Numbered from the stretch's first letter, positions 10,425 through 62,812 are shown. The stretch: 64,000 bases of DNA from Mycobacteriales bacterium (GCA_038237645.1 JBBRYN010000001.1:40101-104100), one strand, 5' to 3'. Made by a program: numbers and translations. Notes: generated by a model from the letters alone, not told the origin.

Positions 10425-10431
10425 CGGGCCG

Positions 10432-11184: not shown

Positions 11185-11336
11185 GACGGGCACGGCAATG
11201 TCCTCAATGGCTCGGAATTGGGAACGGCTGGGGCTCGTGCCGTCATGGTGACACGTCGCGCCGACGTTGTACGAGGTTGGCCGGGTCCGTAGGCTGGGCG
11301 CCACGATGGGTGACCGGGGGAGGAGGGGATGGACCG

Positions 11337-13195: not shown

Positions 13196-13850
13196 ACCGG
13201 CCGGATCCCCGATCACGGTGCTCGTGGTCGACGATCACCCGATGTGGCGGGATGCCGTCGAGCGTGACCTGGCTGCCGCTGGCTTTCGCGTGGTCGGCAC
13301 GGCCGCCGACGGTGCCAAGGCTGTGCGGGTCGCCGCCGCAGTCCGCCCAGATGTCGTCGTCATGGACCTGCAGTTGCCGGAGAAGTCGGGCGTGGTGGCG
13401 ACGGGGGACATCACCGCTGCCCGGCCGGAGACCCGCGTTCTTGTGCTCTCGGCAAGCGGCGAGCAGCGTGACGTGCTGGAGGCGGTGAAGGCGGGCGCCA
13501 CCGGCTACCTGGTGAAGTCGGCCAGTGCGGCGGAATTGACCGATGCCGTCCGCCGGACCGCCGCCGGTGAGGCGACCTTCACGGCAGGCCTGGCGGGGCT
13601 GCTCCTCGGGGAGTACCGCCGGCTGGCGGCAACGCCGACGGGTGACCCGCTGCCGCAGTTGAGCGAGCGCGAGACCGAGGTCCTGCGGCTCGTCGCCAAG
13701 GGCATGACCGCCAAGCAGGTTGCGGCGCGACTCGTGCTGAGTCACCGGACCGTGCAGAACCACGTCCAGAACGCCATGCAGAAGCTGCAACTGCACAACC
13801 GGGCAGGCCTGGTCCGATACGCGATCGAGGCCGGCTTGGACGAGGAGTGA
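13182..13850 (+). CDS. Two-component response regulator, LuxR/NarL family
   Basis: REC domain ITVLVVDDH...VVMDLQLP. C-terminal LuxR HTH LSERETEVLRLVAKGMTAKQVAARLVLSHRTVQNH. GTG overlaps the kinase 3' end. Confidence 0.9.
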   Translation: MCPDEPAGSPITVLVVDDHPMWRDAVERDLAAAGFRVVGTAADGAKAVRVAAAVRPDVVVMDLQLPEKSGVVATGDITAARPETRVLVLSASGEQRDVLEAVKAGATGYLVKSASAAELTDAVRRTAAGEATFTAGLAGLLLGEYRRLAATPTGDPLPQLSERETEVLRLVAKGMTAKQVAARLVLSHRTVQNHVQNAMQKLQLHNRAGLVRYAIEAGLDEE

Positions 13851-13857
13851 CCCGGCC

Positions 13858-16800: not shown

Positions 16801-17253
16801 GGCAGCGGCCTCGCCGCTGGCCACGCCGACCCGCAACCGCATGAGGGTGTCGCCGACGAGCGGAGTACCGCCGAGTGTCCGTTGCAACTCCAGCCCGGTG
16901 CGCACGGCGCGGTACGGGTCGTTCTCGTGGGCGGTCGGTGCGCCGAAGACGACCATCACCGCGTCCCCGATGTATTTCTCGACTATGCCCCCGTACTGCT
17001 CGGCAATGCCCTTCACGGCGGCGAAGTACGCCGACTGGACCGCGCGGAGATCCTCCGGGTCGAGCCGCTCGGCCAATGCGGTGAAGCCCACCAGGTCGGC
17101 GAAGAGCACACTGACCTCGCGCCGTTGCACGTCGGTGACCGGCTCGTCGGGACCGCCGGTCGCCGACAGGTCGCCCAGCCGGGATCCGCAACTGGTGCAG
17201 AAGGGGAGCCCGGCGTCGACCAGGGCCGCGCAGCTCGGACAGCGGGGGTGCAT
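13858..17253 (-). CDS. Multidomain signalling protein: N-terminal zinc ribbon + class III adenylyl/guanylyl cyclase + AAA/NB-ARC-like ATPase + TPR-like repeats
   Basis: CPSCAALVDAGLPFCTSCG zinc ribbon. Cyclase domain VLFADLVGFT...YIGDAVMVVFGAP. P-loop GPPGIGKSRL. Long helical-repeat C-terminus. 1131 aa. Confidence 0.85.
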   Translation of the reverse strand: MHPRCPSCAALVDAGLPFCTSCGSRLGDLSATGGPDEPVTDVQRREVSVLFADLVGFTALAERLDPEDLRAVQSAYFAAVKGIAEQYGGIVEKYIGDAVMVVFGAPTAHENDPYRAVRTGLELQRTLGGTPLVGDTLMRLRVGVASGEAAADLSALRTQGHALLAGDVVNLASRLQSVAPPDEVLVDASTYRMTSYLIEYDAVPDLDVPGKAAPVEVWLARELVSRPTRDEPDLSPLVGRGKDLDRAWDILWSALCERRPHLLAVVGPPGIGKSRLVRELHRRVTAQPQQLVRWRVGHCPAYGAWTSFSSLGEIFKAEAGIRETDQADEAGNRLRRMLAPLVATDDRPIAVAALAPLVGLPAAAVEQAQMLSVWRAVLLAMAANGPTVLVVEDLHWADLPLLHFLESLVAEAIALPLCVVATARPELFDKLPDWCGDATADALFLRPLGDSDVLRLFGALLGATTVNEASLDRLTELAGGNPLYAGEYVRMLADSGDLGSDLGDNPPLPDTVQGIIASRLDLLGAVEQAVVSAASVIGRTFWPSAVTATARLPRSAVEDGLLELQRRDFMRVGQDSTVANETECSFRHVLVRDLAYRRLSRERRADQHRRAADWLEGLTTTGRADVAEALAHHRVVALELATRLRLDLRPYAEPAWRALGAAARQAFALHEYKPALAYAEKAIRVLPPGMDEAECLQVEALAAELRFLDDAAAFHAGGGVAELERLAEQFARLWRPADAGRAYTLLAQIEWFRARRDPAYDYLQRALLLFADQPDSADKAQAFAELARLEMVSYQHAEAIASAQRTEEIAVGLGLAEVQGNARVTAATARYLSGDPAGIEELTQAVQFCRDSQLRALRRGLNNLATALQEEGDLRRSYALLDELREVGRSAGLGLATDFSDASMRAYFDGDWVATLAAADEFFGSAGAGSEPWEAQLRALSAWLRVLRDEDPGDDVELAVRLAAEAGFTPIRRAALAHGALARALQGRTEEAAAMLDELAGEWRGDSSVASRDWIGAAVSAATLAGNESLRPLHEWLVDLPRPTLWVQGAAACARGGLLARRGRQAEAAAAYAESAEVYDRIGSISDSALSAAAAARCFRSAGSAESARPWVASVTGFAARNGAVRLLAEL

Positions 17254-49605: not shown

Positions 49606-50067
49606 TCAGATCACCTCGATCGACCTGCCGCCGGTGGGCCGCAGCAATTCGTCGTAGCTGGTGTCGAAGACGGCGTCGGGTGTGCCGGCGCCGCACCACA
49701 CGACCGGATAATTGGCAAGGGTGACGTCGACCGCGGTCCGCAGCGGATGCGGATGGCCGACCGGCGCCACGCCGCCGATCGGCTGGCCGGTCGCCTCGCG
49801 CACGTATTCCGCGTCGGCCTGCTCGAGCGGGGGCAGGTCGAGCAGCACCGAGACCTTGGCGGTATCCACCCGGTGGGCTCCGCTGGCCAGGACCAGGATC
49901 GGCTCGGTCGACCGGAAGATCAGGCTGTTGGCGATGGCGCCGATCTCGACGCCGAGCGCGTCGGCGGCCAGTGCCGCGGTCAGCGCCGCGATCGGCAGTT
50001 CACGTACGGCACCGGTGGCTCCCAGCGCTCGTAGCGCCGCCGCCACTCCCTCGGCATTGGGGTGCAT
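49606..50067 (-). CDS. YbaK/ProX-like aminoacyl-tRNA editing domain protein
   Basis: 153 aa. SLIFRS...GGVAPVGHP pattern of the YbaK deacylase family. Confidence 0.75.
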   Translation of the reverse strand: MHPNAEGVAAALRALGATGAVRELPIAALTAALAADALGVEIGAIANSLIFRSTEPILVLASGAHRVDTAKVSVLLDLPPLEQADAEYVREATGQPIGGVAPVGHPHPLRTAVDVTLANYPVVWCGAGTPDAVFDTSYDELLRPTGGRSIEVI

Positions 50068-50150: not shown

Positions 50151-51509
50151 ATGACCTCGAGCGCCCTCACCGCCCGTTCCCTTGCCACCGCCACCCCCGT
50201 CTCCCGTGATCGCTACGCGGACTTCCTGCGCGTGTTCTCCATCGGCGTCGTCGTCGCCGGGCACTGGCTGATGGCGGCGCCCACCGTGGATGCAGTTGGC
50301 CGGGTCGCTGCCGGCAACGCGCTGGCCGCTGTCCCGGTGCTGCAGTATGCGACGTGGCTGCTGCAGGTGATGCCGTTGTTTTTCTTCGTGGGTGGATTCG
50401 CCCACTACACCGCGCTGCAGGGGCTGCACCGTCGCGGTGGGTCCTATCCGGACTTCGTGCGCAGCCGGGTCACCCGGCTGCTGCGTCCGACCGCGGTGTT
50501 CGTCACCACCTGGCTGGTGGCCGCCCTCGCACTGGAGGTGACCGGCCGGCAGGCGGGTCTGCTGGCTCTCGCCGTGCGTACCGTTGCCCAGCCGCTGTGG
50601 TTCCTCGGCGTCTATTTGGGCGTCATGGCGCTGGCTCCCACCATGCTGCGGTGGCACCGTCGCAGCGGAGCGGCCGTCCCCGTGCTCCTCGCCGCCGTCG
50701 CCGTGGGGGTGGACGTGGCTTCCTTCGGACTGGACGTGCCCGGCCTGCGCGCGATCAACATCGCCGTGGTCTGGCTGGCCGTGCACCAGTTGGGTTACCT
50801 CTACGCCGATGGCACGCTCCTGCGCACCCGCCGGATCGGCCTGGGCATGGTCCTCGGCGGCCTAGGCACCGTGGTGGCTCTGACCACCAGCGGCGGGTAT
50901 CCGGTGTCGATGGTGGGGATGCCGGGTGAGGCAGTGACCAACATGAACCCGCCCACGGTCGCCCTGCTCGCGCATGCCGTCTGGTTGATCGGTCTGGCGC
51001 TGCTGGTTCGCGAACCGGTCACGCGCTGGCTCGACAACGTCCGCGTATGGACGGCCGTCGTCGCCGCGAACGGCGTCGTGATGACGGTGTTCCTATGGCA
51101 CCTGACGGCGCTGTTCGCCGGTTACGGGGTCTGGCTGTGGCTGGGCGGGCACGTCGCGCCGGCCGGCAGTTCGCTGTGGTGGCAGACCCGGCCGGCGTGG
51201 CTGGCCGGCTTCGCCGTGCTCTGCCTCGTGCTGGTCACGGCTTTCCGCCGGGTGGAGCGGCCCCGCCCGGCACCGTCCGGAGGTCCGGCGCCCCGGCTCG
51301 ATCCGGCCCGGTCGCGGGTCGCGGCGGCCGGCGCCGCAGCCTGCTGCCTGGGGATCCTGGGCCTGTCGGCAACCGGATTCGGCCGGATCCTCGCAGGTCA
51401 CTCCGTCACGATGGTCGTACTGCCGATGTCGGTACCGGTTGCCGTGCTGCTGGTGTTCGCCGGTTGGCTGGCGCTGTCACTGCCTCCGTCTGCGTCGCGC
51501 CCCTCCTGA
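50151..51509 (+). CDS. Acyltransferase 3 family membrane protein (putative carotenoid-glycoside acyltransferase)
   Basis: ~10 TM segments. N-terminal FLRVFSIGVVVAGHW with the conserved His of the acyltransferase-3 family. Adjacent to the carotenoid tailoring operon. Confidence 0.75.
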   Translation: MTSSALTARSLATATPVSRDRYADFLRVFSIGVVVAGHWLMAAPTVDAVGRVAAGNALAAVPVLQYATWLLQVMPLFFFVGGFAHYTALQGLHRRGGSYPDFVRSRVTRLLRPTAVFVTTWLVAALALEVTGRQAGLLALAVRTVAQPLWFLGVYLGVMALAPTMLRWHRRSGAAVPVLLAAVAVGVDVASFGLDVPGLRAINIAVVWLAVHQLGYLYADGTLLRTRRIGLGMVLGGLGTVVALTTSGGYPVSMVGMPGEAVTNMNPPTVALLAHAVWLIGLALLVREPVTRWLDNVRVWTAVVAANGVVMTVFLWHLTALFAGYGVWLWLGGHVAPAGSSLWWQTRPAWLAGFAVLCLVLVTAFRRVERPRPAPSGGPAPRLDPARSRVAAAGAAACCLGILGLSATGFGRILAGHSVTMVVLPMSVPVAVLLVFAGWLALSLPPSASRPS

Positions 51510-51589
51510 CCGGCAAGTTCCGCCTCCAGCAGCCCTGCCCCTCCCGGGGTTGCGGTCTTGTCGGAGGAGAGGTTTACTGTTCCATGTGT

Positions 51590-51605
51590 TCGAACATACG
51601 TTCGA
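51590..51605 (+). promoter_or_regulatory. LexA SOS box (TCGAAC-ATAC-GTTCGA), actinobacterial consensus
   Basis: Perfect match to TCGAAC-N4-GTTCGA within TTCGAACATACGTTCGAACA, ~180 bp upstream of the small-protein/dnaE2 operon. Confidence 0.8.
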
Positions 51606-51787
51606 ACACCTCGTGCCGGTCGCTCGATCGGCGCGGGCGGATCTCTCGCCGCGGCGCGGTCCTCGACCCACCGCGTCCCGGTTGGGAGCCACCGGCCGGG
51701 GCGACGTGGGGAAGCGTTGCCTCGGTCCGGTGACCGCTGCTGCCCGTCTTCCCCGGCAGCACATCTGACGACGGCTGTGCGGGAAGG

Positions 51788-52141
51788 GTGTGTGCATTGA
51801 CAAGGTTGTACGGCGATGCCGTTGACGACGCCGCCGAGGTGCGGCGGCGAGCCGACGAGCCTGAACAGTTCCTCTGGCGTGACCGGTTGTATCTCGTCCG
51901 GGCCGTGTTGGAGCACTGGATGGAGTCAGGAGGATGGTGGCGCACCGGTATGACGCGGGCGGCGCGCTCCGGTGCGCCTGCCGCTGGTGTGGACGGTGCG
52001 ACAGGCGGTGCACTCGACGACGGGGAGCGGGAGTTCTGGCGGGTCGAAGCCGGTGCCGGCCGGCTCGACGACACCGGGGTGTTCGACCTGTGCTTCGACT
52101 GGTCGCACGGCCAGTGGACCGTCGTCCGGGTGCAGGACTAG
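51788..52141 (+). CDS. Small conserved hypothetical protein (117 aa; possibly DUF6504-like) upstream of dnaE2
   Basis: W/R-rich motif FLWRDRLYLVRAVLEHWMESGGWWR. First gene downstream of the SOS box. Family name recalled with low confidence. Confidence 0.5.
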   Translation: MCALTRLYGDAVDDAAEVRRRADEPEQFLWRDRLYLVRAVLEHWMESGGWWRTGMTRAARSGAPAAGVDGATGGALDDGEREFWRVEAGAGRLDDTGVFDLCFDWSHGQWTVVRVQD

Positions 52142-52145
52142 TTCG

Positions 52146-52580
52146 ATGTCCCGGATCCCGCCTCCGGCCCGTCAGTCTGCCCTGAGCCTGCTCTCTCAGG
52201 CCCGGCGGGCGATGGACGAAGCGATGGCGCTGGAGCGGCCGGCCGAGCGTTACTCCGCCACGCACCTCGCGGCACTGCGGGCGGCTGCGGCGGTGCTCGC
52301 CGCACGGGCCCGGCCGACGGCACCCGTGCCCCGACGGTTGTCGCGCCCGACCAGTGCCTGGACGCTGCTGTGCCGGGTTGCTCCGGAGCTCACGGAGTGG
52401 GCCGGATTCTTCGCCGCTGGCGCGGCCAAGCGTGCCGCTGCCGAGGCGGGCCTGCCCCGTTCGGTTACCGCGCGGGAGGCCGACGACCTGGTACGTGACG
52501 CCCAAACCTTCCTTACCGTCGTCGAGACCTTGCTCGGTTTGCTGACCGAGCCGATGCTCACCACCGCAAGGCGCGGGTGA
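52146..52580 (+). CDS. Small alpha-helical protein, HEPN-like (SAV_6107-like family), 144 aa
   Basis: All-helical, Ala/Arg-rich. 3' end overlaps the dnaE2 start (GTGA). HEPN assignment from recall of family naming. No strict Rx4-6H motif verified. Confidence 0.45.
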   Translation: MSRIPPPARQSALSLLSQARRAMDEAMALERPAERYSATHLAALRAAAAVLAARARPTAPVPRRLSRPTSAWTLLCRVAPELTEWAGFFAAGAAKRAAAEAGLPRSVTAREADDLVRDAQTFLTVVETLLGLLTEPMLTTARRG

Positions 52581-55500
52581 GAAGTGCCTTGGCAGATCCA
52601 TTCGTGCACTTACACGTCGCGTCGGGCTACTCGCTGCGGCACGGCGCGAGCTCACCGCGGGTCCTGGCCGAGCGGGCCGCCGAGCACGGCATGGACTCCC
52701 TGGCGCTGACCGACCGGGACGGCGTCTACGGCGCAGTGAAGTTCGTCATCGCCTGCCGGAGTGTCGGAGTGCGGCCCTTGCTCGGGGTCGATCTCGCCGT
52801 CGCACCGGGAAGCACCGCAGCACCGGGAAGCACCGCAGCACCGGGAAGCACCGCAGCACCGGGAAGCACCGCCCGGCGCACCCCCGCACGGGGCGGAGCG
52901 GAGGTTGATCCCCGATTGCCGCGGGTGACCCTGCTGGCCCAAGACGGGCGTGGGTGGGCTTCGTTGTGCCGGCTGATCAGTGCCACGCATTTGGCGGGGG
53001 AGCGAAGTCGCCCGGTCACCTCGCTCGACCTGATCGCGTCGCATGCGGCCGGGTTGTTCGTGTTGCTAGGGCCGGCCTCGGAGTTGGGTCGCGCGGTGGC
53101 CGCCCACCGCCCCGACCTGGCCCGGGCCGTCCTTGCTCGCTGGCGAGCGGTGCTCCCCGCGGAGGATCTGCTCGTCGAGATCGTCTCCCACCGAGGACGC
53201 GGAGACACCGGGCGGGCGGCGGCACTGCTCGGGTTTGCCGCAGCGACCAGCCTGCCAGCGATGCTGACCAACGCGGTGCGCTTCGCCGATCGGGCCAACG
53301 CGCCGATTGCGGATGTTCTCGACTCCGCCCGCCGGCTGGTCCCCCTCGGTGCCCGCTCGGTCGACCGTGTCAACGCCGAGGGCTATCTGAAGTCGGGCAA
53401 GGAGATGGCCGTGGCGGCCTACGAGGTGTGCGGCCCCGACCGCGACGCGGCTGATCGCCTGCTTGCCCGCACCAGGCACGTTGCCGATCGGTGCGCGGTC
53501 GACCCCCGCACCGATATGGGCATCGGCGAAGTGCACTTCCCCGAGCTCGGGGGAGCCGGGGCCAACGGTGCGGCGGGTGCGGCGAGGGCCGTGCTGCGGG
53601 CCAGGTGCGAGGCGGGTTTGGGTCGGCGAGTCATGGCACCCACCGCAGAAGTCCAAGAGCGGCTCGATCACGAACTCGGCATCATCGACGGGCTCGGCTA
53701 TCCGTCGTACTTCCTGACCGTGGCCGACATCGCCGACCTCATTCGCTCGCTGGGCGTGCGCTGTGCTGCCCGGGGATCGGGCGCCGGCAGCCTCGTCACC
53801 TACCTGCTGGGAATCTCCGATGTCGATCCGATCCGTTACCGGCTGCTGATGGAGCGCTTTCTGTCGCCGCTGCGCCAAGCGTTGCCCGACATCGACATCG
53901 ACGTGGAGTCGGCTCGCCGGACAGAGGTCTACGAGGCGGTGCTTGCGCGATTCGGTGCGCAGCGGTGCACGTGCGTATCGATGATGGACACCTACCGCGC
54001 CCGGCATGCGATCCGCGATGTCGGGGCGGCGCTCGGGCTGCCGCCAGGTGAGATCGACGCGGTGGCCAAGGCGTTTCCGCACATTCGGGCAAACCAGCTC
54101 CATCAGGCGTTGCACGACCTGCCCGAGCTACGGGCCAGCGGGTTGGGGGAGGCGCGCCTGTCGCTGCTGTTCACCCTGGCCGAACGGCTGGACGGGCTTC
54201 CTCGGCACATTGCCCTGCACCCCTGCGGTGTGTTGCTCTCCGATAAGACGCTGCTCGACCGCACGCCGGTCGAGGCGAGCTACCTGGGCTTCCCGATGAG
54301 CCAGTTCGACAAGGACGACGTCGAGGAACTCGGATTTCTCAAGCTCGACCTGCTCGGCATCCGGATGCAGTCGGCGATGGCCCACGCGATCGACGAGGTG
54401 CAGCGGGTCGACGGGGAGCGGATCGACATCGACGCGGTGCCGCGCGACGACCCGACGACCTTTGCGCTTGTGCGCTCCACCCGGCTGCTCGGTTGCTTCC
54501 AGATCGAGTCTCCCGGCCAGCGCGAATTGATCGGCAAGTTCGGGCCCGAGACGTTCGATGACCTCATCGTCGACATCTCGCTGTTCCGTCCCGGGCCGGT
54601 CAAGAGCGACATGGTGACACCGTTCCTCGAGGCCCGGCAGGGCTGGCGGCCGCCCAGCTACTTCCACGACGACGTACGCCCGGCGCTCGAGCAGACCTGC
54701 GGCGTGGTCGTCTTCCACGAGCAGGTGCTCGAGATCGTCGCTGTGTTGACCGGCTGCTCGCTTGCCGAGGCCGACGAGGTGCGTCGCGCGCTCGGCGACA
54801 AGGACGGCCAGGAGGAGGTGCGGGTCTGGTTCCGCCCATTGGTGCTGGCTCGTGGCTACGACCTGGCCACCGTCGATCGGGCGTGGGAGATTCTGCGCGC
54901 CTTCGGTTCGTTCGGTTTCTGCAAGGCTCATGCGGCGGCGTTTGCCCTGCCGACCTACCAGTCGGCGTGGCTCAAGGCGCACCATCCGGCCGCATTCCTC
55001 GCCGGAGTCCTCACCCATGACCCGGGCATGTATCCCAAGCGGCTGATTCTCGACGACGCCCGGCAGTTCGGCATCGCCGTGCTCGGGCTCGACGTCAACG
55101 TTTCCGAGTCGACCTATCGGATGGAGCGGGTAGGAGACTTCGACGAGCCGCCATCGGGGATCCCCGCCCGGCCTCCGCGGGCGAGTTCCGAGGACCCCGG
55201 CCGGTCGTCGCGGGCGAGTTCCGAGGACCCCGGCTGGCCGAACAGTCGTTGTCATGGGATCCGGTTGTCGCTGGCCGACGTCAGGGGCATCTCCGCAGCC
55301 GAGATCGCCCGGATCGTGGCCGGCCGGCCCTACCATTGCCTGGCCGACTTCTGGCACCGTGCGGCGGTGTCCCGCCCGATCGCGGAGCGACTGGTGGTGG
55401 CAGGCGGCTTCGACACCCTCTACGGCATCGGGACGTCGCTGACGGTGCGCCGACAAGGTCAGGTGACCCGGCGTGACCTGCTGTTGCAGGTCGCCGAGCT

Positions 55501-56422
55501 CGACCAGTGGTCCCGGGGCGTGCGGCGGTCTGCTCGGGCGACGGCACCGCGTCTGGCAGGCAAGGGCCGCCGCAAGGCCGGCGGCAGCGGCGAGCGGAGC
55601 GGCTCACCCACAGACGATCCGATCCGCAGCCAGGCAGCCGGTCAGTCTCAGGCCGCGGCCGTGCCGGAGCCGGTTGACGTCCAGCTGATCCTCGACCTCG
55701 GTGACGACCCGGGGCACACCAGCCTGTCCGGGCTACCTGAGATGACCGGTGCCGAGCGGGTACGCGCCGAGCTCGACGTGCTCGGCCTCGACGCGAGCCA
55801 GCACATCGTGGATTTCTACGAGCCGTTCTTCGCCGCGGTCGGAATTACCCGGTCGCGGGATCTGCTCGGCTGTCGCAGCAAGGCCGAAGTGCTGGTCGCG
55901 GGAGTCAAGGTCGCCACCCAGACGCCACCGGTCAGGTCTGGCCGGCGGGTCGTTTTCGTCACCCTCGACGACGCCACCGGGCCGGTCGACGCGACGTTCT
56001 TCGAGGATGCCCAAGTCGGCTATGCCAGCACTCTTTTTCACTGCTGGCTGCTGGTCATCCGCGGTGAGGTTCGGCGGACGGGCCGGCGCGGGGTGTCGAT
56101 CCGGGCGACCGGCTGCTGGGAACTCCCCGCGTTGCGGGACGCATGGGAGTGCGGCGGCCTGGCGGCGGTCGCCGCGGCGATGCGGGCCCCTGCCGTGCTC
56201 ACCGAGGAAGCGGTCCACGGCGCCGCCGAGAGCAGATCGGGCCGCCCCGTGACGACCCGGCCGCCGGGAGCCGGCCATGACGGTCCGGCCGGCCGCGCCG
56301 TGCTGGTCTCGGCCACCGGTTTCCGGCTCTCGCCATATGCCGACATCAAGCCACCTGGTGAAGCATCCCAGGGGGCGCCGCGCAAGCTGTGGCATTCCAG
56401 CCCGGGGAGTTCCGGTGGATGA
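52577..56422 (+). CDS. dnaE2: Error-prone DNA polymerase III alpha (DnaE2/ImuC), unusually long (1281 aa)
   Basis: N-terminal PHP domain HLHVASGYSL...LALTDRDGVYG. Pol III alpha core motifs. SOS box upstream. Contains two in-frame tandem-repeat insertions. Confidence 0.9.
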   Translation: MRSALADPFVHLHVASGYSLRHGASSPRVLAERAAEHGMDSLALTDRDGVYGAVKFVIACRSVGVRPLLGVDLAVAPGSTAAPGSTAAPGSTAAPGSTARRTPARGGAEVDPRLPRVTLLAQDGRGWASLCRLISATHLAGERSRPVTSLDLIASHAAGLFVLLGPASELGRAVAAHRPDLARAVLARWRAVLPAEDLLVEIVSHRGRGDTGRAAALLGFAAATSLPAMLTNAVRFADRANAPIADVLDSARRLVPLGARSVDRVNAEGYLKSGKEMAVAAYEVCGPDRDAADRLLARTRHVADRCAVDPRTDMGIGEVHFPELGGAGANGAAGAARAVLRARCEAGLGRRVMAPTAEVQERLDHELGIIDGLGYPSYFLTVADIADLIRSLGVRCAARGSGAGSLVTYLLGISDVDPIRYRLLMERFLSPLRQALPDIDIDVESARRTEVYEAVLARFGAQRCTCVSMMDTYRARHAIRDVGAALGLPPGEIDAVAKAFPHIRANQLHQALHDLPELRASGLGEARLSLLFTLAERLDGLPRHIALHPCGVLLSDKTLLDRTPVEASYLGFPMSQFDKDDVEELGFLKLDLLGIRMQSAMAHAIDEVQRVDGERIDIDAVPRDDPTTFALVRSTRLLGCFQIESPGQRELIGKFGPETFDDLIVDISLFRPGPVKSDMVTPFLEARQGWRPPSYFHDDVRPALEQTCGVVVFHEQVLEIVAVLTGCSLAEADEVRRALGDKDGQEEVRVWFRPLVLARGYDLATVDRAWEILRAFGSFGFCKAHAAAFALPTYQSAWLKAHHPAAFLAGVLTHDPGMYPKRLILDDARQFGIAVLGLDVNVSESTYRMERVGDFDEPPSGIPARPPRASSEDPGRSSRASSEDPGWPNSRCHGIRLSLADVRGISAAEIARIVAGRPYHCLADFWHRAAVSRPIAERLVVAGGFDTLYGIGTSLTVRRQGQVTRRDLLLQVAELDQWSRGVRRSARATAPRLAGKGRRKAGGSGERSGSPTDDPIRSQAAGQSQAAAVPEPVDVQLILDLGDDPGHTSLSGLPEMTGAERVRAELDVLGLDASQHIVDFYEPFFAAVGITRSRDLLGCRSKAEVLVAGVKVATQTPPVRSGRRVVFVTLDDATGPVDATFFEDAQVGYASTLFHCWLLVIRGEVRRTGRRGVSIRATGCWELPALRDAWECGGLAAVAAAMRAPAVLTEEAVHGAAESRSGRPVTTRPPGAGHDGPAGRAVLVSATGFRLSPYADIKPPGEASQGAPRKLWHSSPGSSGG
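52802..52873 (+). repeat. 18-bp x4 tandem repeat (gcaccgggaagcaccgca) inside dnaE2, encoding (APGSTA)4
   Basis: Read directly from the sequence. In frame within the PHP-domain region. Confidence 0.95.
55169..55243 (+). repeat. 33-bp tandem duplication inside dnaE2 (RASSEDPGRSS / RASSEDPGWPN)
   Basis: The 24-nt core cgggcgagttccgaggaccccggc occurs twice with a 33-nt period. In frame. Confidence 0.9.
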
Positions 56423-56497
56423 CCCTGCGCCGCCGATACGCTCGCGGGACGGGTTCGCCGACGACGGCGGCACGGGTCCAGCGCGAGGAGACACTCA

Positions 56498-57241
56498 GTG
56501 GCAGATCCCGGCAGGGCGCATACCGCTCCGCGCACTGCTGTTGTATGGACGGTGCTGCGAGCCGAGCTCGACCGCCATCCTGACGCCTCGCTGCGGGTGC
56601 TCGACGTCGGTGGCGGAAGCGGACAGTTCGCGGTGCCATTGGCCGAGCTCGGCCACCAGGTCACCGTTGTCGACGCCAGCCCCGACGCGCTCGCTGCCCT
56701 GGAGCGCCGGGCCGCCGAGCGGGGGGTGGCTGCGCGCATCACCGGTGTCCAGGGTGATGCCGACACGGTCCTGCAGGTCGTCGGGGCGTTCAGTCAAGAC
56801 CTCGTGCTGTGCCACAGCCTGCTCGAGGTCGTCGACGAGCCGGCCGCCGCACTCGACCCGATCGCCCAAACGATGCGCCCAGGCGGGTGTGCCAGCGTGC
56901 TCGTGGCCAACCGCAACGCCGTGGTGTTGTCGCGGGCGCTCGGCGGCCATCTTGCCGACGCGGTCCGGGCCATGCACGACCCGGCCGGGCGGTGGGGTGA
57001 CGGCGATGCGGCACTTCGTCGCTACGACCTGCCTGAGGCAACCGCGCTGCTGGCTGCGGCCGGCCTGGTCATCGAGGCGGTGCATGGTGTGCGTGTCGTC
57101 GCCGACCTGGTGCCAGGCGTCCTCGCCGACGCGGAGACCGGTGGCCTCAAGGCCCTTCTCGAGCTGGAGCTGGCGGCCGCCGGCCGGTCGCCCTTCCGCG
57201 ACATCGCCACCCAACTTCACCTGCTCGCCCGCCGGGGCTGA
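56498..57241 (+). CDS. Class I SAM-dependent methyltransferase
   Basis: Motif I VLDVGGGSGQFAVPLAELG. Motif post-I VTVVDAS. Lies between dnaE2 and dinB. Confidence 0.8.
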   Translation: MADPGRAHTAPRTAVVWTVLRAELDRHPDASLRVLDVGGGSGQFAVPLAELGHQVTVVDASPDALAALERRAAERGVAARITGVQGDADTVLQVVGAFSQDLVLCHSLLEVVDEPAAALDPIAQTMRPGGCASVLVANRNAVVLSRALGGHLADAVRAMHDPAGRWGDGDAALRRYDLPEATALLAAAGLVIEAVHGVRVVADLVPGVLADAETGGLKALLELELAAAGRSPFRDIATQLHLLARRG

Positions 57242-57265
57242 TGTGACGGCGGCCGGAGAGGTCTG

Positions 57266-58573
57266 GTGAGTCGCTCCGCCCCCCCGCCGGTCGGTCCGGC
57301 CCCGGGCCCGGCCGCAGATGACACGGCCTGCACGATCCTGCACGTCGACATGGACGCGTTTTATGCCAGCGTCGAGCTGCGCCGCCGTCCCGATCTGCGA
57401 GGCAGGCCGGTGATCGTGGGTGGCAACGGTTCGCGGGGAGTTGTCCTGTCCGCGACCTACGAGGCGCGGGCGTTCGGCGTGCGTAGTGCCATGCCGGTGA
57501 TGCGAGCCCGCCGGCTGTGCCCGCAAGCCACGATGGTGCGCCCGGACTTCGCCGCCTATACCCAGGCCTCCCGCGGGGTGATGGAGGTGTTCCGATCGAT
57601 CACGCCGTTGTTCGAACCGCTGTCCCTGGACGAGGCGTTCCTCGATGTGAGCGGCACCCGGCGGCGGCTCGGCCGGCCGGTGGCTATTGCGGAGTTGATC
57701 CGCGGCCGCATCGCCGATGAGCAGGACATCACCTGCTCGGTGGGCGTAGCGACGACGAAGTTCGTCGCCAAGCTCGCCTCGGCCCGCTGCAAACCGGATG
57801 GCCTGCTCGTCGTGCCCGCGGGCGGCGTGGTGGGCTTCCTGCATCCCTTACCCGTGGGTGCCTTGTGGGGGGTGGGGGAGCGGACGGAGGAATTACTGCT
57901 GCGGCTGGGGCTCAAGACCGTCGGCGATATCGCCAACGCTGCGGTGGCCACCCTGCGCCGGGCGCTCGGCGACGCAGCCGGAGCGCACCTGCATGCACTG
58001 GCCTGGGGCCGCGACGAGCGCACTGTCGTGCCGCACGAGCCCGACAAGAGCATCGGTGCCGAAGAAACTTTCAGCACCGATGTCGATGATCCTGAGGTCA
58101 TCCGGCGGGAGCTGCTGCGCCTGGCCGAGCGCACCGCTGCCCGACTACGTCTTAGTGACCAGGTCGGGCGAACGGTGAGCATCAAGGTGCGTTTCGCCGA
58201 TTTCACCACGATCACCCGCTCCCGGACCCTTGACGTCCCGACCGACGTCGGGCGGGAGATCTATGGCACGGCACGGTCGTTGTTCGACGCGTTGGGATTG
58301 CAACGCGCCCGGTTGCGCCTGGTCGGGGTGCGGGTTGAGGGGATCCTGCCGGGGTCGACCACCGCTCAGCAGCTGTTGCTGGGGGCTCCTGAGCACGGCT
58401 GGCGGGAGGCGGAGCAGGCGGTCGACCGGGCAGCCCGGCGATTCGGCGACGGCGCGGTCCAGCCGGCCGCCCTGGTCGATCCGACCGACCATCGGGCCGG
58501 GCAACCCGCTGCCCGGGCTGGTGCGCCCGTGAGAATGCGGGCGCTCGACCACGATTCCGGGCCGATCGGTTGA
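57266..58573 (+). CDS. dinB: DNA polymerase IV (Y-family)
   Basis: ILHVDMDAFYASVE, SLDEAFLDV and little-finger domain. 435 aa. Confidence 0.95.
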   Translation: MSRSAPPPVGPAPGPAADDTACTILHVDMDAFYASVELRRRPDLRGRPVIVGGNGSRGVVLSATYEARAFGVRSAMPVMRARRLCPQATMVRPDFAAYTQASRGVMEVFRSITPLFEPLSLDEAFLDVSGTRRRLGRPVAIAELIRGRIADEQDITCSVGVATTKFVAKLASARCKPDGLLVVPAGGVVGFLHPLPVGALWGVGERTEELLLRLGLKTVGDIANAAVATLRRALGDAAGAHLHALAWGRDERTVVPHEPDKSIGAEETFSTDVDDPEVIRRELLRLAERTAARLRLSDQVGRTVSIKVRFADFTTITRSRTLDVPTDVGREIYGTARSLFDALGLQRARLRLVGVRVEGILPGSTTAQQLLLGAPEHGWREAEQAVDRAARRFGDGAVQPAALVDPTDHRAGQPAARAGAPVRMRALDHDSGPIG

Positions 58574-58676: not shown

Positions 58677-59078
58677 GTGCCTCTCTCAGAGCACGAGCAG
58701 CGCCTGCTCGATCAAATCGAGCGCGCGCTGTACGCCGAAGACCCCAAATTCGCCTCGGCCGTGCGCGCCTCCGATCCCCGCAACCGGGCGCGCCGGCGCT
58801 TGTGGCAATCCGGGGTGCTTTTCGTCGTGGGCGTCTCGTTGCTCTTCGCCGGCGTGATCAACAGCCACCTCATCGGTGCTGCCGTCGGCCTGGCCGGCTT
58901 CCTCATCATGTTCGCGGCCGCTGTTTTCGCCGCCACGAGCTGGAAGCGGATGAACGGTCGCGAGCCACTGCGCGTCGTCGGCAGCGACCGCCCCGGCCGG
59001 ACGCGGGCGCGCAAGCCCTCGCTGCTCGACCGGATGGAGCAGCGCTGGCGGGGCCGCGACGAGAATCGCGGTCGCTGA
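58677..59078 (+). CDS. DUF3040 domain membrane protein
   Basis: MPLSEHEQRLLDQIERAL N-terminus typical of DUF3040, then two TM helices. GTG start preceded by GGGGAGGAG. Confidence 0.75.
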   Translation: MPLSEHEQRLLDQIERALYAEDPKFASAVRASDPRNRARRRLWQSGVLFVVGVSLLFAGVINSHLIGAAVGLAGFLIMFAAAVFAATSWKRMNGREPLRVVGSDRPGRTRARKPSLLDRMEQRWRGRDENRGR

Positions 59079-59123: not shown

Positions 59124-61541
59124 TCAACCAGGAGGGTGCGGACGGAGGCGGCGCAGCACTCCCCGGCGCCCGCGTGTCAGGGCCGCGTCCACCTGGTCGA
59201 GCACATCGGCGATCCCCTTCCCGCTGCGCTGGCCGGCGAAGCGGATCGCCGAAGGGGGGAGCGCCCGTGCCCGCAGGCCCGCCCGCCGGGTGGCGCCGTG
59301 GCGCATCGCCCGGCGCAGTTGACCGACCGTGCCGGCCAGGCCGTCGGCTGACGGCGGCCGGGTCGAGTAGCGAGCCTGTTCCTCTGCCCTGGCCAGCCGG
59401 CGAAGCGCCGCGGCGGAAGCGTCGTCAAGGCCGGTGTCACGCGACAAACATTCGGCCGTAATCCGCGGGGTCTGCGCCTCGTCCGTGACATGGCCCAGGT
59501 CGTAGGCGCTGGCCAGCACCTCGTCCCAGGCGGCGTTGACCGCCAGCCGCGGGTCACTGCCGGACACCTCGCGCAGCCGCCTGCGCCGGCCCACCACCCG
59601 GAGGGCCGCTGGCGCGATGCACAGGAGTGCGCCCAGCAGGCCAGCAGATGCCCATTGTCCGGTGCGGTCCGGCGGGACCGCCGGCGTGATCGGCGCCGGC
59701 AGCGGTAGCGCGGTGTCCGACCGCCCTTCCCGGTCCTCGTGTGCCCCGACCTGGTGCGTCTTGTTGGTCTCGCCCGCCCCGGCCCCGCTCGGGTGATCCG
59801 GGGAGTCTCCGTCCGTCGCCGCGCTCGGCGCCGTGTAGGGCAGGATCGTGGCCCGGCCGGCGCCGCCCAGCGGGGTCGGATCCCAGGCGATCCAGCCAAC
59901 GTTGGAGAAGTAGATCTCCACCCATGCGTGCGCATCGCTCGTCGTGACCGACCAGTAGCCCTTCTTTCGCTGACCCTTCGTGTAGCCGATCGCGACCCTT
60001 GCCGGCAGCTCCGCGTATCGGGCCATCGCCGCCATCGCGGACGCGTACTGCTCGCAGTAACCGGCCTTGCTGTCGAGGAACTCCAGCAGGGCGCCGCCGC
60101 CGTTGCCGGGCGCAGTGCTGGTGGTGTATCGGAAGGGCTGCTTGCCGTCACGGAAGTAGTTGTAGAGCGCGAGCGCCCTTTCGTAGGGCGTGTTCCGCTG
60201 AGCGACGATGGCTTCGACCCGTTTCTTGATCTCCGGCCCGTCCGCGATGTCCGGCGTACTTCGATAGGCGGCCTGAGGGTCGGCGCTCCCCATCTCGTCA
60301 CTGGCCTGCTTGAGCAGATCCGTCAACCGTGGGCTGAATCGATCGGGCGTGACGGACTGGAAGGAGTACTGCAGGTCCCTGGTGTTGGTCCGGCCGCTGA
60401 AGACGGTGCCACTGCGGGGGTCATAGCGCCAGTCGCCGTGGACGCTGACCCTCGTCGGAGTCGAATACACCGGCAGGTATTGCGACGTGCCCAGGCCGCG
60501 CACCTGCACCGACGTCTTGAACCTGACCTGCGGGACGGCACGGCCGATGCCCGCAACGGGCAGCCCGCCGCTCACCGGGCGGGTCGGCGAGGAGGTCAGC
60601 GGCGTCTGCTTCCACCCGCCGCCGGTGAACCGGTCGAGCGTCGTCACGCGCAGGTAAAAGGGCTGCGGATCGTCGGTGCGGACGCGGAGCAGCTCGATCG
60701 GGGTCAGGCGGGTCAACTGCCCACGCAGCGCAGTGATCGGATTCAGGGCGGCGGAGTAGCCGCCCGGCCCCGAGCCGACGCCCTGGCCGCTGGCCAATCC
60801 GGCCAGGCCGCCGGTGTGCACAAAGGGAATGACCACCGGCACCACGACGGCGATTCCGATCGCGGCCACCCCGATACGCCGGCCGACGGCAGTGATCGGG
60901 GAGGGTTCGAACGGGTCCGGCCGCCAGCCGTCGCCTTCGGTGGAGTGTTCGGTGAACGGGCGCCCCCATCGGGTGACGCGATCCCTGCCCTCGGCCAGCA
61001 GGAGGACGACGTATCCGGTGGCGCCCACGGCGAAGGGCAGCCAGCCGATGCCGTCGCGGGCCACGGCGACCGGCACCGCGAACATGGCGAGCAGCGGGAG
61101 ACCGGCCAATGCCGCCCGTCGCATGCTCACCGTCAGGGCATCGATGACGATGGCTGCCGAACCCACGCCCAGCACGGTCAACAGCAGCAGGCCGCGATGT
61201 GGTGGGACAGGCACAGCGAGCTGGACGACGTCACTGGCGGCGGCATTGATCAATTGGCGCAGGGCGCCGAACGTGCCGGCTGTCGGTACGGCGCCGAGGA
61301 TCTCCGAGCCGTTGCCGAAGAGGGCACAAATCAGCAGCCCGAGTGCACCCAGGTTGACCAGCGGCACCAGGCCGTCCGGGGCTGACAGCCGGCGGACGGC
61401 CAGGCTGGTTCCGGTGATCGTGACCACGGTGAGGATCGCGTAACCGAGCCACGCCCAGGTGTCGAACAACGGCGCAAGGGGGGCGGTGCCCAGCAGGGTG
61501 GCGACGCCGCACGTAGCGGCGAGCTGGAGCCGGCTGCTCAC
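59124..61541 (-). CDS. Transglutaminase-like membrane protein (TgpA-like: N-terminal multi-TM + transglutaminase core + DUF4129-like C-terminus)
   Basis: Catalytic region GYCEQYASAMAAMAR...DAHAWVEIYFSNVGWIAWDPTP (Cys-His-Asp). GTG 61541 overlaps the DUF58 stop (GTGA). The longer ORF in the track is fused with an upstream frame. Confidence 0.8.
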   Translation of the reverse strand: MSSRLQLAATCGVATLLGTAPLAPLFDTWAWLGYAILTVVTITGTSLAVRRLSAPDGLVPLVNLGALGLLICALFGNGSEILGAVPTAGTFGALRQLINAAASDVVQLAVPVPPHRGLLLLTVLGVGSAAIVIDALTVSMRRAALAGLPLLAMFAVPVAVARDGIGWLPFAVGATGYVVLLLAEGRDRVTRWGRPFTEHSTEGDGWRPDPFEPSPITAVGRRIGVAAIGIAVVVPVVIPFVHTGGLAGLASGQGVGSGPGGYSAALNPITALRGQLTRLTPIELLRVRTDDPQPFYLRVTTLDRFTGGGWKQTPLTSSPTRPVSGGLPVAGIGRAVPQVRFKTSVQVRGLGTSQYLPVYSTPTRVSVHGDWRYDPRSGTVFSGRTNTRDLQYSFQSVTPDRFSPRLTDLLKQASDEMGSADPQAAYRSTPDIADGPEIKKRVEAIVAQRNTPYERALALYNYFRDGKQPFRYTTSTAPGNGGGALLEFLDSKAGYCEQYASAMAAMARYAELPARVAIGYTKGQRKKGYWSVTTSDAHAWVEIYFSNVGWIAWDPTPLGGAGRATILPYTAPSAATDGDSPDHPSGAGAGETNKTHQVGAHEDREGRSDTALPLPAPITPAVPPDRTGQWASAGLLGALLCIAPAALRVVGRRRRLREVSGSDPRLAVNAAWDEVLASAYDLGHVTDEAQTPRITAECLSRDTGLDDASAAALRRLARAEEQARYSTRPPSADGLAGTVGQLRRAMRHGATRRAGLRARALPPSAIRFAGQRSGKGIADVLDQVDAALTRGRRGVLRRLRPHPPG

Positions 61542-62812
61542 CGGGCACCCGCCCCGGCCGGCACCTGACCGGACATCGCCACCAGTGGCCAGAGGGTCGA
61601 CAACGACGAGCCATGGCGGGCGACGAGCACCCGCCAGCCGCCCTGTTGCAGGCGGCGTACGACCGCGTCGTAGGCAGCCTTGGACTCGGCCGCCTCGCTC
61701 GGGGGCAGGCCGACCCAGGTGTCGCCGTCGAGCAGCAGCGCGATGCCGAGGGTCGAGTGAGCGAGCGTGCCACCGATCTGCGCCGCGGCGGCGACGTCGA
61801 GCCGGCCGAGGACCGCCACCACGAGTCCCTCGCTGCTGCTGCGGCGGAGTACGTCGACCACCGGCGCCGCGCTGCTGTGGGCGGACAGGCGCACCTCGGA
61901 GAGCTGATCGAGCAGCAGTCCAGCGGTATTGGCCCCGCGCGGTGCGTTGAGGTCGGCGTCGGCTTCGGTGAGGAGTCGCAGCGAGTAGCCCTCCCCGGCC
62001 AGGTGCACGGCGACGCTGGCCGCCGCACTGACCGCCCACTCGAAGCTCGACCCCGGGCCGTCGCCCCGGTGCGCCGCCGCGCGGGTGTCGAGAACCACCG
62101 CCGCGCGGCTCTGCCACGGCTGCTCTTCGCGCCGCACCATCAATTCGCCCACCCTGGCCGTCGATCGCCAGTGCACCTTGCGGAGGTCGTCGCCCTGGCG
62201 GTATTCGCGGGTGGCAGTGTCGTCCTCGCCCTGGATGGAAACCGACCGGGCGTTGCTTTCGCCGCCACCGGCCCAGTCGCCGCCGAGCCGGACGCGCGGC
62301 AACGGGTGGACGACGGGTGAGACGGTGAGGGAGTCGACGCTACTGAACGATCGGGTCAGCTCGACCATGCCGAGCGGATCGGTCAGTTGCACCGACAGCG
62401 GGCCGATGACATACCTGCCCCGGACGTCGGCGCGAACCGGGTAGGTCACGGAACGCTTGCCCCGAGGGCGCACCCGATCGAGCACGAAGCGCGGCCGCCC
62501 CCCCAGCGAGTAGGGCAGGGTGTCTTCCATCAGCAGGACGCCGGTCGGCAGCCGCGAGACGTTTTCCAGGCGCAGCACCACCGTCGCGCGCTGCCCGACA
62601 GGCACCTGCGCCGGTTCGAGCAGGCGGGAGCAGGCCAACCGGTAGCGGGTGCGGGTGACCACGGCGGCGGCGACGAGCGGCAACGCCGCCAAGAACACCG
62701 CCACCCGCATCAGGTCGCGCTCGTGCAACACCAGCGCACATATCGCCGCAGCCGCACCCGCCGCGAGGAAGCAGCGCCCGCGGGTGGTCAGGCCGGACAG
62801 CGCTTCCCGCAC
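61538..62812 (-). CDS. DUF58 domain protein (vWA-like, MoxR partner)
   Basis: Conserved DUF58 segment REYRQGDDLRKVHWRSTAR. Two N-terminal TM helices. GTG 62812 overlaps the MoxR stop. Confidence 0.8.
   Translation of the reverse strand: MREALSGLTTRGRCFLAAGAAAAICALVLHERDLMRVAVFLAALPLVAAAVVTRTRYRLACSRLLEPAQVPVGQRATVVLRLENVSRLPTGVLLMEDTLPYSLGGRPRFVLDRVRPRGKRSVTYPVRADVRGRYVIGPLSVQLTDPLGMVELTRSFSSVDSLTVSPVVHPLPRVRLGGDWAGGGESNARSVSIQGEDDTATREYRQGDDLRKVHWRSTARVGELMVRREEQPWQSRAAVVLDTRAAAHRGDGPGSSFEWAVSAAASVAVHLAGEGYSLRLLTEADADLNAPRGANTAGLLLDQLSEVRLSAHSSAAPVVDVLRRSSSEGLVVAVLGRLDVAAAAQIGGTLAHSTLGIALLLDGDTWVGLPPSEAAESKAAYDAVVRRLQQGGWRVLVARHGSSLSTLWPLVAMSGQVPAGAGAR

Follow-up and report, generated by a model that had tools for sequence, protein, structure and literature searches.

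A predicted damage-inducible operon for a split-ImuB mutasome in a Mycobacteriales bacterium, with a HEPN-family gene and a structured leader

We analyzed a 64,000-nt (64-kb) stretch of DNA, one strand, from a Mycobacteriales bacterium (GCA_038237645.1 JBBRYN010000001.1:40101-104100), which we call the window and from whose first letter all coordinates are counted. Within it, a LexA (SOS) box heads five same-strand open reading frames (ORFs) that probably form an operon for an error-prone DnaE2 polymerase and the parts of a split-ImuB mutasome. A first-pass annotation made from the sequence alone had placed five ORFs here, with a methyltransferase gene and dinB after dnaE2, and Pfam and NCBIfam agree with that placement. 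The features from promoter to last gene are as follows.

51550-51580, plus strand: predicted promoter, with a -35-like TTGCGG at 51550-51555 and TGTCGGAG-N8-TACTGT at 51559-51580
51590-51605, no strand: predicted LexA (SOS) box, TCGAACATACGTTCGA, about 9 nt 3' of the -10 element
51788-52141 as called mechanically, likely 51797-52141, plus strand: ORF 1, DUF6504 or standalone ImuB-C, 117 aa from GTG and 114 aa from TTG
52146-52580, plus strand: ORF 2, HEPN_SAV_6107, 144 aa (Pfam PF18726, E 9e-37)
52577-56422, plus strand: ORF 3, DnaE2B-type error-prone C-family polymerase, 1281 aa, with an alternative start TTG at 52589
56498-57241, plus strand: ORF 4, CmoM/SmtA-like S-adenosylmethionine-dependent methyltransferase, 247 aa (Pfam class I methyltransferase)
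57266-58573, plus strand: ORF 5, DinB-type Y-family polymerase, 435 aa (Pfam IMS/IMS_C; NCBIfam DNA polymerase IV)

The box TCGAACATACGTTCGA, reported at first pass as a perfect SOS box, is the sole perfect TCGAAC-N4-GTTCGA in the window, and its position about 9 nt downstream of the -10 element puts it at or near the transcription start. A scan allowing up to one mismatch gave three matches in the window, with 0.10 expected by chance; the two sites with one mismatch, at 10952 and 23141, were discarded because both are intragenic, the latter in a phosphofructokinase-like ORF. Successive ORFs are separated by 4, -4, 75, and 24 nt, the first value being the distance from the ORF 1 stop to the HEPN ATG and the second reflecting the overlap, as GTGA, of the HEPN stop TGA (52578-52580) with the dnaE start GTG at 52577, which had been noted before. 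No second LexA box, promoter-like site, or terminator was found between the five genes in the window; terminator-like sites occur only inside dnaE2 or DUF3040, at a frequency not above chance. Base composition and codon-position GC of the region are ordinary for the window. Searches by tblastn with ImuA and ImuB queries, which recover both genes in 12 comparison loci, matched DinB alone in the window and found no imuA or imuB homologue there. The earlier picture of a LexA-box-headed, tightly packed unit with DnaE2 and DinB and with no imuA'-imuB in the window is thus upheld.

By sequence, the W/R-rich protein encoded by the first gene is the standalone C-terminal domain of ImuB (ImuB-C), not an unknown adaptor. 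It matches Pfam DUF6504 (PF20114, E 4e-17) and is 50% identical (E 3e-27) to QBR94233 of N. euryhalodurans and 46% identical (E 4e-15) to VEP41449 of T. lapidicaptus, both labeled ImuB-C in the supplement of a 2026 survey in Nucleic Acids Research (PMC12926913) and both themselves matching PF20114. ImuB-C was defined as the beta-rich C-terminal domain of ImuB by Aravind et al. (PMC3765255). A DUF6504 hidden Markov model built here matches 10 of 10 published standalone ImuB-C proteins tested, including two nonactinobacterial ones, ACZ39476 and Dehalogenimonas ADJ25744, and ADJ25744 in turn matches the extreme C-terminus of canonical ImuB proteins from comparison loci. Direct comparisons of DUF6504 profiles with ImuB C-termini from 11 Micromonosporaceae/Acidothermaceae loci were not significant, whether by hmmsearch (E 0.015-11 in an 11-sequence database) or by hhalign (0.4% probability; the alignments are shallow), and Pfam DUF6504 gives no match to full-length ImuB, so that the link is drawn from the published ImuB-C sequences and the transitive match. 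A DUF6504 profile search of 1.84 billion representatives yielded only short standalone proteins among the 150 matches listed, a set that could not reveal ImuB fusions. The AlphaFold model of the protein is all-beta, with a core pLDDT of ~90. The fold check that had been suggested for this protein gave no match, by Foldseek of the model or by sequence search, in the PDB, which agrees with the published view of ImuB-C as a new beta-barrel fold (PMC12926913). A literature search for DUF6504 found nothing.

The ORF itself is real, and the 117-aa length assigned to it earlier probably does not hold: homologues begin MTRLYG, so the start is probably TTG at 51797 (114 aa), which is preceded by GGGAAGGG at 51781-51788. 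Public annotation of the source contig carries only a 73-aa fragment of this gene (P0134). The protein is acidic in its calculated isoelectric point (pI 4.8). As a separate observation, a subset of DUF6504/ImuB-C proteins (alignment A2; e.g., P0145, P0153, P0156, P0164, and P0170) carries an insert, L(A/T)PIP(A/S)SPKWAQRAWGEPAPD, in a loop that is disordered in the window protein; this insert may be a linear interaction motif.

The polymerase encoded by ORF 3 contains the Pfam domains PHP, DNA_pol3_alpha, finger, HHH_6, and OB, and its translation has the catalytic motifs PDIDID and KLDLLG. Pairwise identity indicates that it is a DnaE of the B clade, not DnaE2A or DnaE1. Its N-terminal 416 aa are 49% identical to DnaE2B of T. 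lapidicaptus and 45% to that of S. alboniger, the values against three published DnaE2B proteins over ~410 N-terminal residues being 49%, 45%, and 39%, and its identity to the DnaE2 proteins of related DUF6504-HEPN loci runs from 50 to 84%, compared with ~32% to the DnaE2 beside imuA'-imuB in Micromonosporaceae. The first-pass description of this DnaE2 as oversized is not borne out, as 1281 aa is normal for a clade whose published members span 1146-1320 aa (PMC12926913). Part of the length is due to low-complexity inserts encoded by in-frame tandem repeats, an 18-bp unit in 3.9 copies (52802-52872, encoding STAAPG repeats) and a 33-bp unit in 2.4 copies (55162-55240). The C-terminus is PRKLWHSSPGSSGG, an ending kept in DnaE2B relatives, and SRDF[H/R], a C-terminal motif present in 77% of DnaE2 proteins and the ending of DnaE2A, is absent. 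Two C-terminal motifs recur across the DnaE2B relatives (window 56240-56419), SGF(R/K)xSPYADIKP(P/A)G and a terminal PRKLWHSSPGSSG(G/R). It is possible that these, in place of the SRDF[H/R] tail, are partner-binding motifs.

The DinB protein scores above the NCBIfam cut-off for DNA polymerase IV, and its catalytic motifs DMDAFYASVE and SLDEAF are intact. Over residues 24-408 it shares 56% identity (E 5e-141) with PolY VEP41451 of T. lapidicaptus, and the alignment continues through the C-terminal tail, where a clamp-binding-like QQLLLG is accompanied by a RecA-NT-like tail, HGWREAEQAVDRAARRFGDGAVQPAALV; the RecA-NT motif was assigned by alignment to VEP41451 and not by profile. DinB is apparently an active PolY and the Y-family partner of the module. 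With the first gene read as ImuB-C and DinB as the Y-family partner, the earlier proposal that the adaptors had been replaced by two proteins of unknown function is not supported. The methyltransferase, which had been singled out as a notable part of an SOS unit, matches NCBIfam CmoM (E 5e-31, below the cut-off) and, over its full length, PDB 8joz and 4htf (E 1e-19). It lies between DnaE2B and DinB in most loci and stays beside HEPN or DinB and DUF3040 where DnaE2 is absent, so its position is not evidence of a special SOS function, and we treat this CmoM/SmtA-like protein as a probable cotranscribed neighbor rather than a DNA-modifying SOS enzyme.

We compared related loci in two scans, one anchored on HEPN (one genome per species, 80 loci) and one anchored on DnaE2B (metagenome contigs, another 80 loci). 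In the first, 27 of 80 loci have the order DUF6504-HEPN-DnaE2B-[methyltransferase]-DinB-DUF3040, one has DnaE2B without detectable DUF6504, nine have DUF6504-HEPN without DnaE2, 22 have HEPN with the methyltransferase and/or DinB only, 12 have HEPN beside canonical imuA'-imuB-dnaE2A (Micromonosporaceae and one Acidothermaceae metagenome-assembled genome [MAG]), four have HEPN with unrelated neighbors (Amycolatopsis, Glycomyces, and two MAGs), and five are truncated. Of the 79 assessable loci, 70 have a LexA box (at most one mismatch) ahead of the first gene, the exceptions being mainly Kitasatospora and Streptacidiphilus. In the second scan, HEPN is immediately 5' of DnaE2B in 68 of 75 loci with enough sequence, DUF6504 is present in 55 of 57, both small genes are present in 51 of 57, and a LexA box is found in 46 of 48. 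The spacing from HEPN to DnaE2B is mostly -8 to +30 nt, and independent gene calls with precomputed Pfam labels give the same order, PF20114, PF18726, DnaE, [methyltransferase], IMS, DUF3040. The co-occurrence of the small genes with dnaE2, on which the first-pass annotation had hung its module, is therefore borne out.

HEPN also occurs outside DnaE2B loci. In Micromonosporaceae, HEPN sits behind a LexA box directly 5' of imuA'-imuB-dnaE2, followed by methyltransferase-DinB-DUF3040 (L028, L031, L032, L037, L041, L060, L064, L069, L073, L074, and L077, at ~10001-17000), and in L080 the HEPN gene is 3' of the canonical cassette instead. A solitary HEPN gene lies behind a perfect LexA box among unrelated housekeeping neighbors in L078, L026, L051, and L023 (~9900-10400). 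HEPN_SAV_6107 thus looks, from its genomic settings, like an SOS gene in its own right. In Propionibacteriaceae-type loci (L040, L044, L046, L053, and L057-L059), the HEPN box is weaker, TCGAACAGGCGTTCTA, and DinB, directly downstream, has its own perfect LexA box ~410 nt past the HEPN start.

Split-ImuB arrangements of this sort were described in 2013, 2019, and 2026 (PMC3765255, PMC6511836, PMC12926913), with the ImuB-C scheme developed by Timinskas and Venclovas (PMC6511836) and then in the 2026 survey. DnaE2 group B occurs in genomes without imuA/imuB, and for Actinobacteria the putative complexes DnaE2B-[ImuB-C] and DnaE2B-[ImuB-C]-PolY-RecA have been proposed, the DnaE2B-PolY-ImuB-C-RecA examples being T. 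lapidicaptus, Janibacter indicus, Kineococcus radiotolerans, Ornithinimicrobium pratense, and Nocardioides euryhalodurans (PMC12926913). On sequence grounds the window module is of this kind, which is restricted to Actinobacteria: it has the same three protein families in the same order and a DnaE2B of similar length. The difference is that the 2026 survey names four components and no HEPN, methyltransferase, promoter, or leader RNA, whereas in the window HEPN lies between ImuB-C and DnaE2B and the methyltransferase between DnaE2B and PolY. Published accessions skip one gene between ImuB-C and DnaE2B in Janibacter, Kineococcus, and Ornithinimicrobium (APH01277/79, ABS04681/79, and QFG68257/59, respectively), and the first two also skip one between DnaE2B and PolY (PMC12926913). 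Ornithinimicrobium-like loci L063 and L066 have HEPN at exactly the skipped position. The HEPN gene is thus likely present, though undiscussed, in these published examples, and the accession gap between DnaE2B and PolY suggests the same for the methyltransferase.

Other systems resemble the module in part. Like the mycobacterial ImuA'-ImuB-DnaE2 mutasome (Warner 2010; PMC10421592), it appears SOS controlled, with a catalytic C-family DnaE2, a clamp-binding Y-family scaffold, and an ImuB-C beta-barrel predicted to hold the DnaE2 PHP domain. Unlike it, the window lacks ImuA' and the catalytically dead ImuB, assigns the functions of ImuB to two proteins, a standalone ImuB-C and a DinB that appears active, and has a DnaE2 of the B clade that ends in PRKLWHSSPGSSGG and not SRDF[H/R]. 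The Streptomyces dnaE2-dinB2 operon (Tsai 2012, PMC3273824; PMC9380542) likewise joins DnaE2B and a Y-family gene in one LexA-controlled unit, and the Streptomyces LexA regulon has the same SOS-box consensus, to which LexA binding has been measured in S. venezuelae, where dnaE2-dinP is strongly induced (30-fold) (PMC9380542). However, scDinB2, the Y-family partner in Streptomyces, is a PolY that has been inactivated, and ImuB-C was not found in that system (PMC12926913, PMC6511836); in the Streptomycetaceae loci of our set (Kitasatospora and Streptacidiphilus), HEPN lies apart from any dnaE2, beside the methyltransferase and DUF3040, with no LexA box. The Geobacter sulfurreducens lexA-imuB-C-polY operon (PMC6511836) also pairs a standalone ImuB-C with an active Y-family polymerase in a damage-induced unit, but it has no DnaE2 and no HEPN and belongs to a different phylum.

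The promoter is conserved together with the box. In a side-by-side comparison of 80 related loci, the -35-like element, TTGCGG in the window, is TTGACG in most relatives, and a conserved second element, TGTCGG(A/T)G-N8-TAC(T/C)NT, ends ~8-9 nt 5' of the LexA box (9 nt in the window). TTGnn-N-TAnnnT is found upstream of 36 of 80 boxes compared with 0.16% of random 45-mers, and TGTCRG-N9-11-TAnnnT, ending 7-10 nt before the box, in 35 of 81 loci compared with 0.2% of random 60-mers; the latter pattern has a single copy in the window, at this promoter. A simple sigma-70 scan found no promoter at the locus because the -10 element here is TnTACT/TACTGT. TTTACT, considered as a -35 element, was ruled out by the multilocus comparison.

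The second element with its -10 looks like a RecA-NDp/PafBC-type "-26 element" promoter, the window sequence set beside the RecA-NDp consensus being TTGTCGGAG-N8(7)-TACTGT. We take that consensus to be tTGTCRgtg-N8-TAnnnT, presumably after Gamulin (2004), and the identification is provisional. The combination suggests dual control of the promoter by an activator, PafBC, and by LexA. The RecA-NDp motif has been described, as have genes that combine it with an SOS box, mycobacterial recA and uvrA among them (PMC8223512); in those genes the two elements share one upstream region, as the RecA-NDp-like element and the box would here. By comparison, the mutasome genes of mycobacteria are described as LexA targets, and in the window both elements, the first provisionally identified, are packed into one promoter with the box at the predicted start site. 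The composite PafBC-like/LexA promoter appears to be undescribed.

Downstream of the box, the ~190-nt leader as a whole folds far better than shuffled sequence (z = -4.3) and contains three predicted elements.

51646-51684, plus strand: hairpin A, stem 51646-51660 with 51670-51684 and conserved loop CCUCGACCC at 51661-51669
51689-51732, plus strand: hairpin B, stem of ~19 bp with invariant hexaloop GGGGAA at 51708-51713
51748-51754, plus strand: CUUCCCC element, complementary to the hairpin B loop plus closing G (GGGGAAG) and to the Shine-Dalgarno (SD) region

Both hairpins are supported by covariation. TCGACCC occurs in the loop of a stable hairpin in 42 of 79 loci compared with 2.6% of random windows, and hairpin A lies 22-111 nt 3' of the box across loci, with one at 247 nt. 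In alignment A5, which is ungapped and anchored on the hairpin A loop, 69.6% of cells pair against 50.7% when shuffled, and the covariation score is 0.507 against 0.215 (0 of 500 shuffles), with all 15 of 15 pairs varying on both sides. A covariance model of hairpin A (R1) gave 29 matches in 1.5 Mb, 29 of 29 on the plus strand and in a leader, and its 31 best matches in metagenome loci, plus L110, have the same placement. For hairpin B, 32 loci chosen by sequence motif alone (alignment A6) show pairing in 87.5% of cells against 60.8% when shuffled, a covariation score of 0.682 against 0.215 (0 of 500 shuffles; slid registers, 0.11-0.19), and 17 of 19 pairs varying on both sides. Its loop is closed by U.G and G-C pairs (GUGGGGAAGC, 51706-51715), and the conserved U.G pair fixes the plus strand.

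The CUUCCCC element lies 23-52 nt 3' of hairpin B in 26 of 32 loci and 20-70 nt 5' of start codons bearing a purine-rich SD, and the leader's minimum-free-energy structure has it base-paired to the SD (GGGAAGGG, 51781-51788). Its complementarity to both the hairpin B loop and the SD suggests an SD/anti-SD/anti-anti-SD switch that would govern translation of the first gene. The hairpins are also found where HEPN is the first gene (L018, L034, and L051), ahead of canonical cassettes (L028, L031, L032, L037, L073, and L080), and in loci without HEPN (L104, L124, and L130), and thus go with the promoter-leader unit, not with any single gene downstream of it. An upstream peptide in the leader (GTG GGG AAG...) was rejected because the GTG-to-CTTCCCC distance spans all three frames and the stems covary as RNA. 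Pairing of the hairpin A loop with GGGUCGAG was set aside as probable coincidence, GGGUCGAG being codons for (W)VE/RVE inside the DUF6504 gene. An Rfam scan of 51500-51900 gave nothing relevant at E up to 10, the window and four loci gave no Rfam match that reached the gathering score, and a literature search for RNA motifs with dnaE2/imuB found nothing. The two-hairpin leader, which may be a new cis-regulatory RNA of SOS/mutasome operons in Actinobacteria, appears to be undescribed.

The protein between ImuB-C and the polymerase had been called HEPN-like and a potential RNase. The first half of that description is sound, as the fold check confirms a genuine four-helix up-down HEPN fold in the 144-aa protein and its gene is coupled to dnaE2; the second is not supported, in that helix 3 does not end in the canonical RNase motif, Rx4-6H, with no His in residues 93-110 and R96 invariant. 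A HEPN survey likewise lists HEPN_SAV_6107 as "No" for Rx4-6H (PMC3710099). Conservation in the family is high, with 52 invariant columns in 36 sequences, among them R35-x4-H40 (helix 2) and R96 (end of helix 3); charged residues are very highly conserved, and the protein is strongly basic (pI 11.3). Its closest structure is AF0298, and for AF0298-type HEPN proteins an alternative site has been proposed in which a His farther upstream joins the Arg of the motif; H40 with R96 would be a possible counterpart here. Compared with HEPN-T (AF0298 type) and MNT-HEPN toxins, the window has no Rx4-6H, no minimal nucleotidyltransferase (MNT) partner, and no mobile context, and relative to the superfamily the invariant R35-x4-H40 is in helix 2, not at the helix 3 end. 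HEPN has no adjoining MNT gene in the window, nor in the 160 loci compared, whose HEPN neighbors are DUF6504, DnaE2, the methyltransferase, and DinB. The window's own HEPN protein has no existing database record, a PDB sequence search with it found nothing, and a literature search found no link of HEPN with dnaE2. Our best guess is that the protein is a noncanonical SOS accessory factor that binds nucleic acid or protein and is coproduced with the polymerase, a classical HEPN RNase toxin being disfavored. The appearance of HEPN_SAV_6107 as a near-constant partner of DnaE2B seems to be undescribed.

Taken together, the region is probably an operon, inducible by DNA damage, that encodes a split-ImuB mutasome of the DnaE2B-PolY-ImuB-C-RecA kind. 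Homologies of the parts, gene order, tight spacing, a conserved box and promoter, and covarying leader hairpins are observed directly in the DNA. Operon transcription, control by LexA and PafBC, complex formation, and mutagenic function are expected by analogy with the published systems. In the undamaged cell, LexA would occupy the box at the transcription start of the conserved promoter, which, being RecA-NDp-like, would also be PafBC activated. After damage, RecA-stimulated cleavage of LexA, probably together with PafBC, would yield one mRNA with the ~190-nt structured leader. ImuB-C, a small beta-barrel, would dock on the DnaE2 PHP domain, as in published AlphaFold models, and so hold DnaE2B, the catalytic polymerase, with the basic HEPN protein and the CmoM-like methyltransferase made alongside. 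The C-terminal clamp motif and RecA-NT-like motif of DinB would provide the contacts that the canonical system obtains from full-length ImuB, and RecA would stand in for ImuA'.

Several points weigh against this interpretation. The absence of imuA'-imuB pertains to the 64-kb window and not to the whole genome. Five of 57 DnaE2B loci have DUF6504 directly before DnaE2B, without HEPN, as does T. lapidicaptus, judging from consecutive accessions. Conversely, many genomes that lack DnaE2 still keep HEPN and the methyltransferase: Kitasatospora and Streptacidiphilus have HEPN-methyltransferase-DUF3040 with no LexA box, and Amycolatopsis and Glycomyces carry HEPN alone behind a box. Given this persistence, the tie of HEPN and the methyltransferase to the polymerase may be one of shared promoter or inherited gene order and not of function. 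Finally, neither UV resistance nor mutagenesis was altered in dnaE2 mutants of S. coelicolor, which leaves a mutagenic role for DnaE2B putative.

The strongest alternative concerns the HEPN protein, which could act in the SOS response on its own account, as a noncanonical nuclease or as a protein that binds RNA or DNA, with a LexA promoter ancestral at this chromosomal site behind which translesion cassettes, mechanistically unconnected with it, have merely come to lie; we give this a little less than an even chance. It would account for the solitary HEPN genes that Amycolatopsis, Glycomyces, and two MAGs carry behind a LexA box amid unrelated housekeeping genes, for those that adjoin canonical imuA'-imuB-dnaE2A in 12 loci (5' of the cassette, or 3' in L080), and for those that persist with the methyltransferase or DinB where DnaE2 is absent. 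It also fits the high pI, the conserved charge, and the resemblance to AF0298, in HEPN families with a proposed alternative His/Arg site. However, ~90% of DnaE2B loci place HEPN between ImuB-C and DnaE2B with few-nucleotide spacers or overlaps, which is unusual for an unrelated passenger, and no terminator or second box separates it from the polymerase genes in the window. HEPN may therefore be an accessory subunit or an independent SOS effector, and we give the two roughly equal weight.

That two novel small proteins functionally replace ImuA' and ImuB, with HEPN in the role of ImuA', is an unlikely reading of the locus. There is no imuA/imuB in the window, the pair is conserved beside DnaE2B, and DnaE2B genomes without imuA and imuB are reported (PMC12926913), all as this reading would have it. 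Yet the first protein is a piece of ImuB and not a substitute for it, DinB bears the clamp and RecA-NT motifs, and published models put RecA in the ImuA position (PMC12926913, PMC6511836); moreover, HEPN coexists with ImuA' in Micromonosporaceae, and some DnaE2B systems lack HEPN.

It is more doubtful still that the five genes are simply neighbors by conserved order near dcw/DUF3040, separately transcribed, with the box controlling the first gene only. The HEPN...methyltransferase...DinB...DUF3040 order is kept across many families whatever their DnaE2 content, and DinB has its own perfect LexA box 3' of HEPN in Propionibacteriaceae-type loci, but in the window the intergenic gaps of 4, -4, 75, and 24 nt contain no second box, promoter-like site, or terminator. 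Least credible is a damage-induced toxin-antitoxin-like pair in which a HEPN RNase toxin and an acidic DUF6504 antidote would cause growth arrest, for although the two proteins are opposite in charge (pI 4.8 and 11.3), their genes are 4 nt apart or overlapping and are kept without DnaE2 in nine loci, and HEPN toxins without the canonical motif are reported to be toxic, there is no MNT partner and no Rx4-6H, HEPN often occurs without DUF6504 and DUF6504 without HEPN, DUF6504 has a well-supported separate role as ImuB-C, and the HEPN family is chromosomal, conserved in position, and vertically inherited, unlike mobile modules.

Beyond the split-ImuB assignment, we raise, tentatively and as something we think rather unlikely, that both mutasome types, DnaE2B/ImuB-C and ImuA'-ImuB-DnaE2A, share two unrecognized layers of control. 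The first would be the basic, noncanonical HEPN protein, made from a LexA/PafBC-gated promoter and serving as a fifth subunit, as a polymerase gatekeeper, or in an RNA-directed role in the SOS response. The second would be the leader, whose invariant loops CUCGACCC and GGGGAA and anti-SD CUUCCCC would switch translation of the first gene, possibly via a loop-binding factor.

DnaE2 mutasomes are responsible for mutation after DNA damage, such as that leading to drug resistance in mycobacteria, and B-clade systems that work without ImuA/ImuB were catalogued only in 2026. The natural DnaE2B system usually includes HEPN_SAV_6107 (~90% of sampled loci), which also heads canonical imuA'-imuB-dnaE2 operons in Micromonosporaceae. 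Should HEPN prove to be a subunit or a regulator, the present models with four components would be incomplete. The promoter architecture and leader hairpins suggest that access to error-prone synthesis is gated at both transcription and translation. Kineococcus, Nocardioides, Janibacter, and Micromonospora are among the tractable hosts in which these ideas can be tested directly.

The surroundings of the five genes are also kept in relatives. Upstream, at 49606-50067 on the minus strand, is a gene for a YbaK-like tRNA-editing domain protein, and downstream are a DUF3040/SCO2097-family gene (58677-59078, plus strand) and a transglutaminase (TgpA-like) gene (59124-62117, minus strand), in a gene order that the relatives share.

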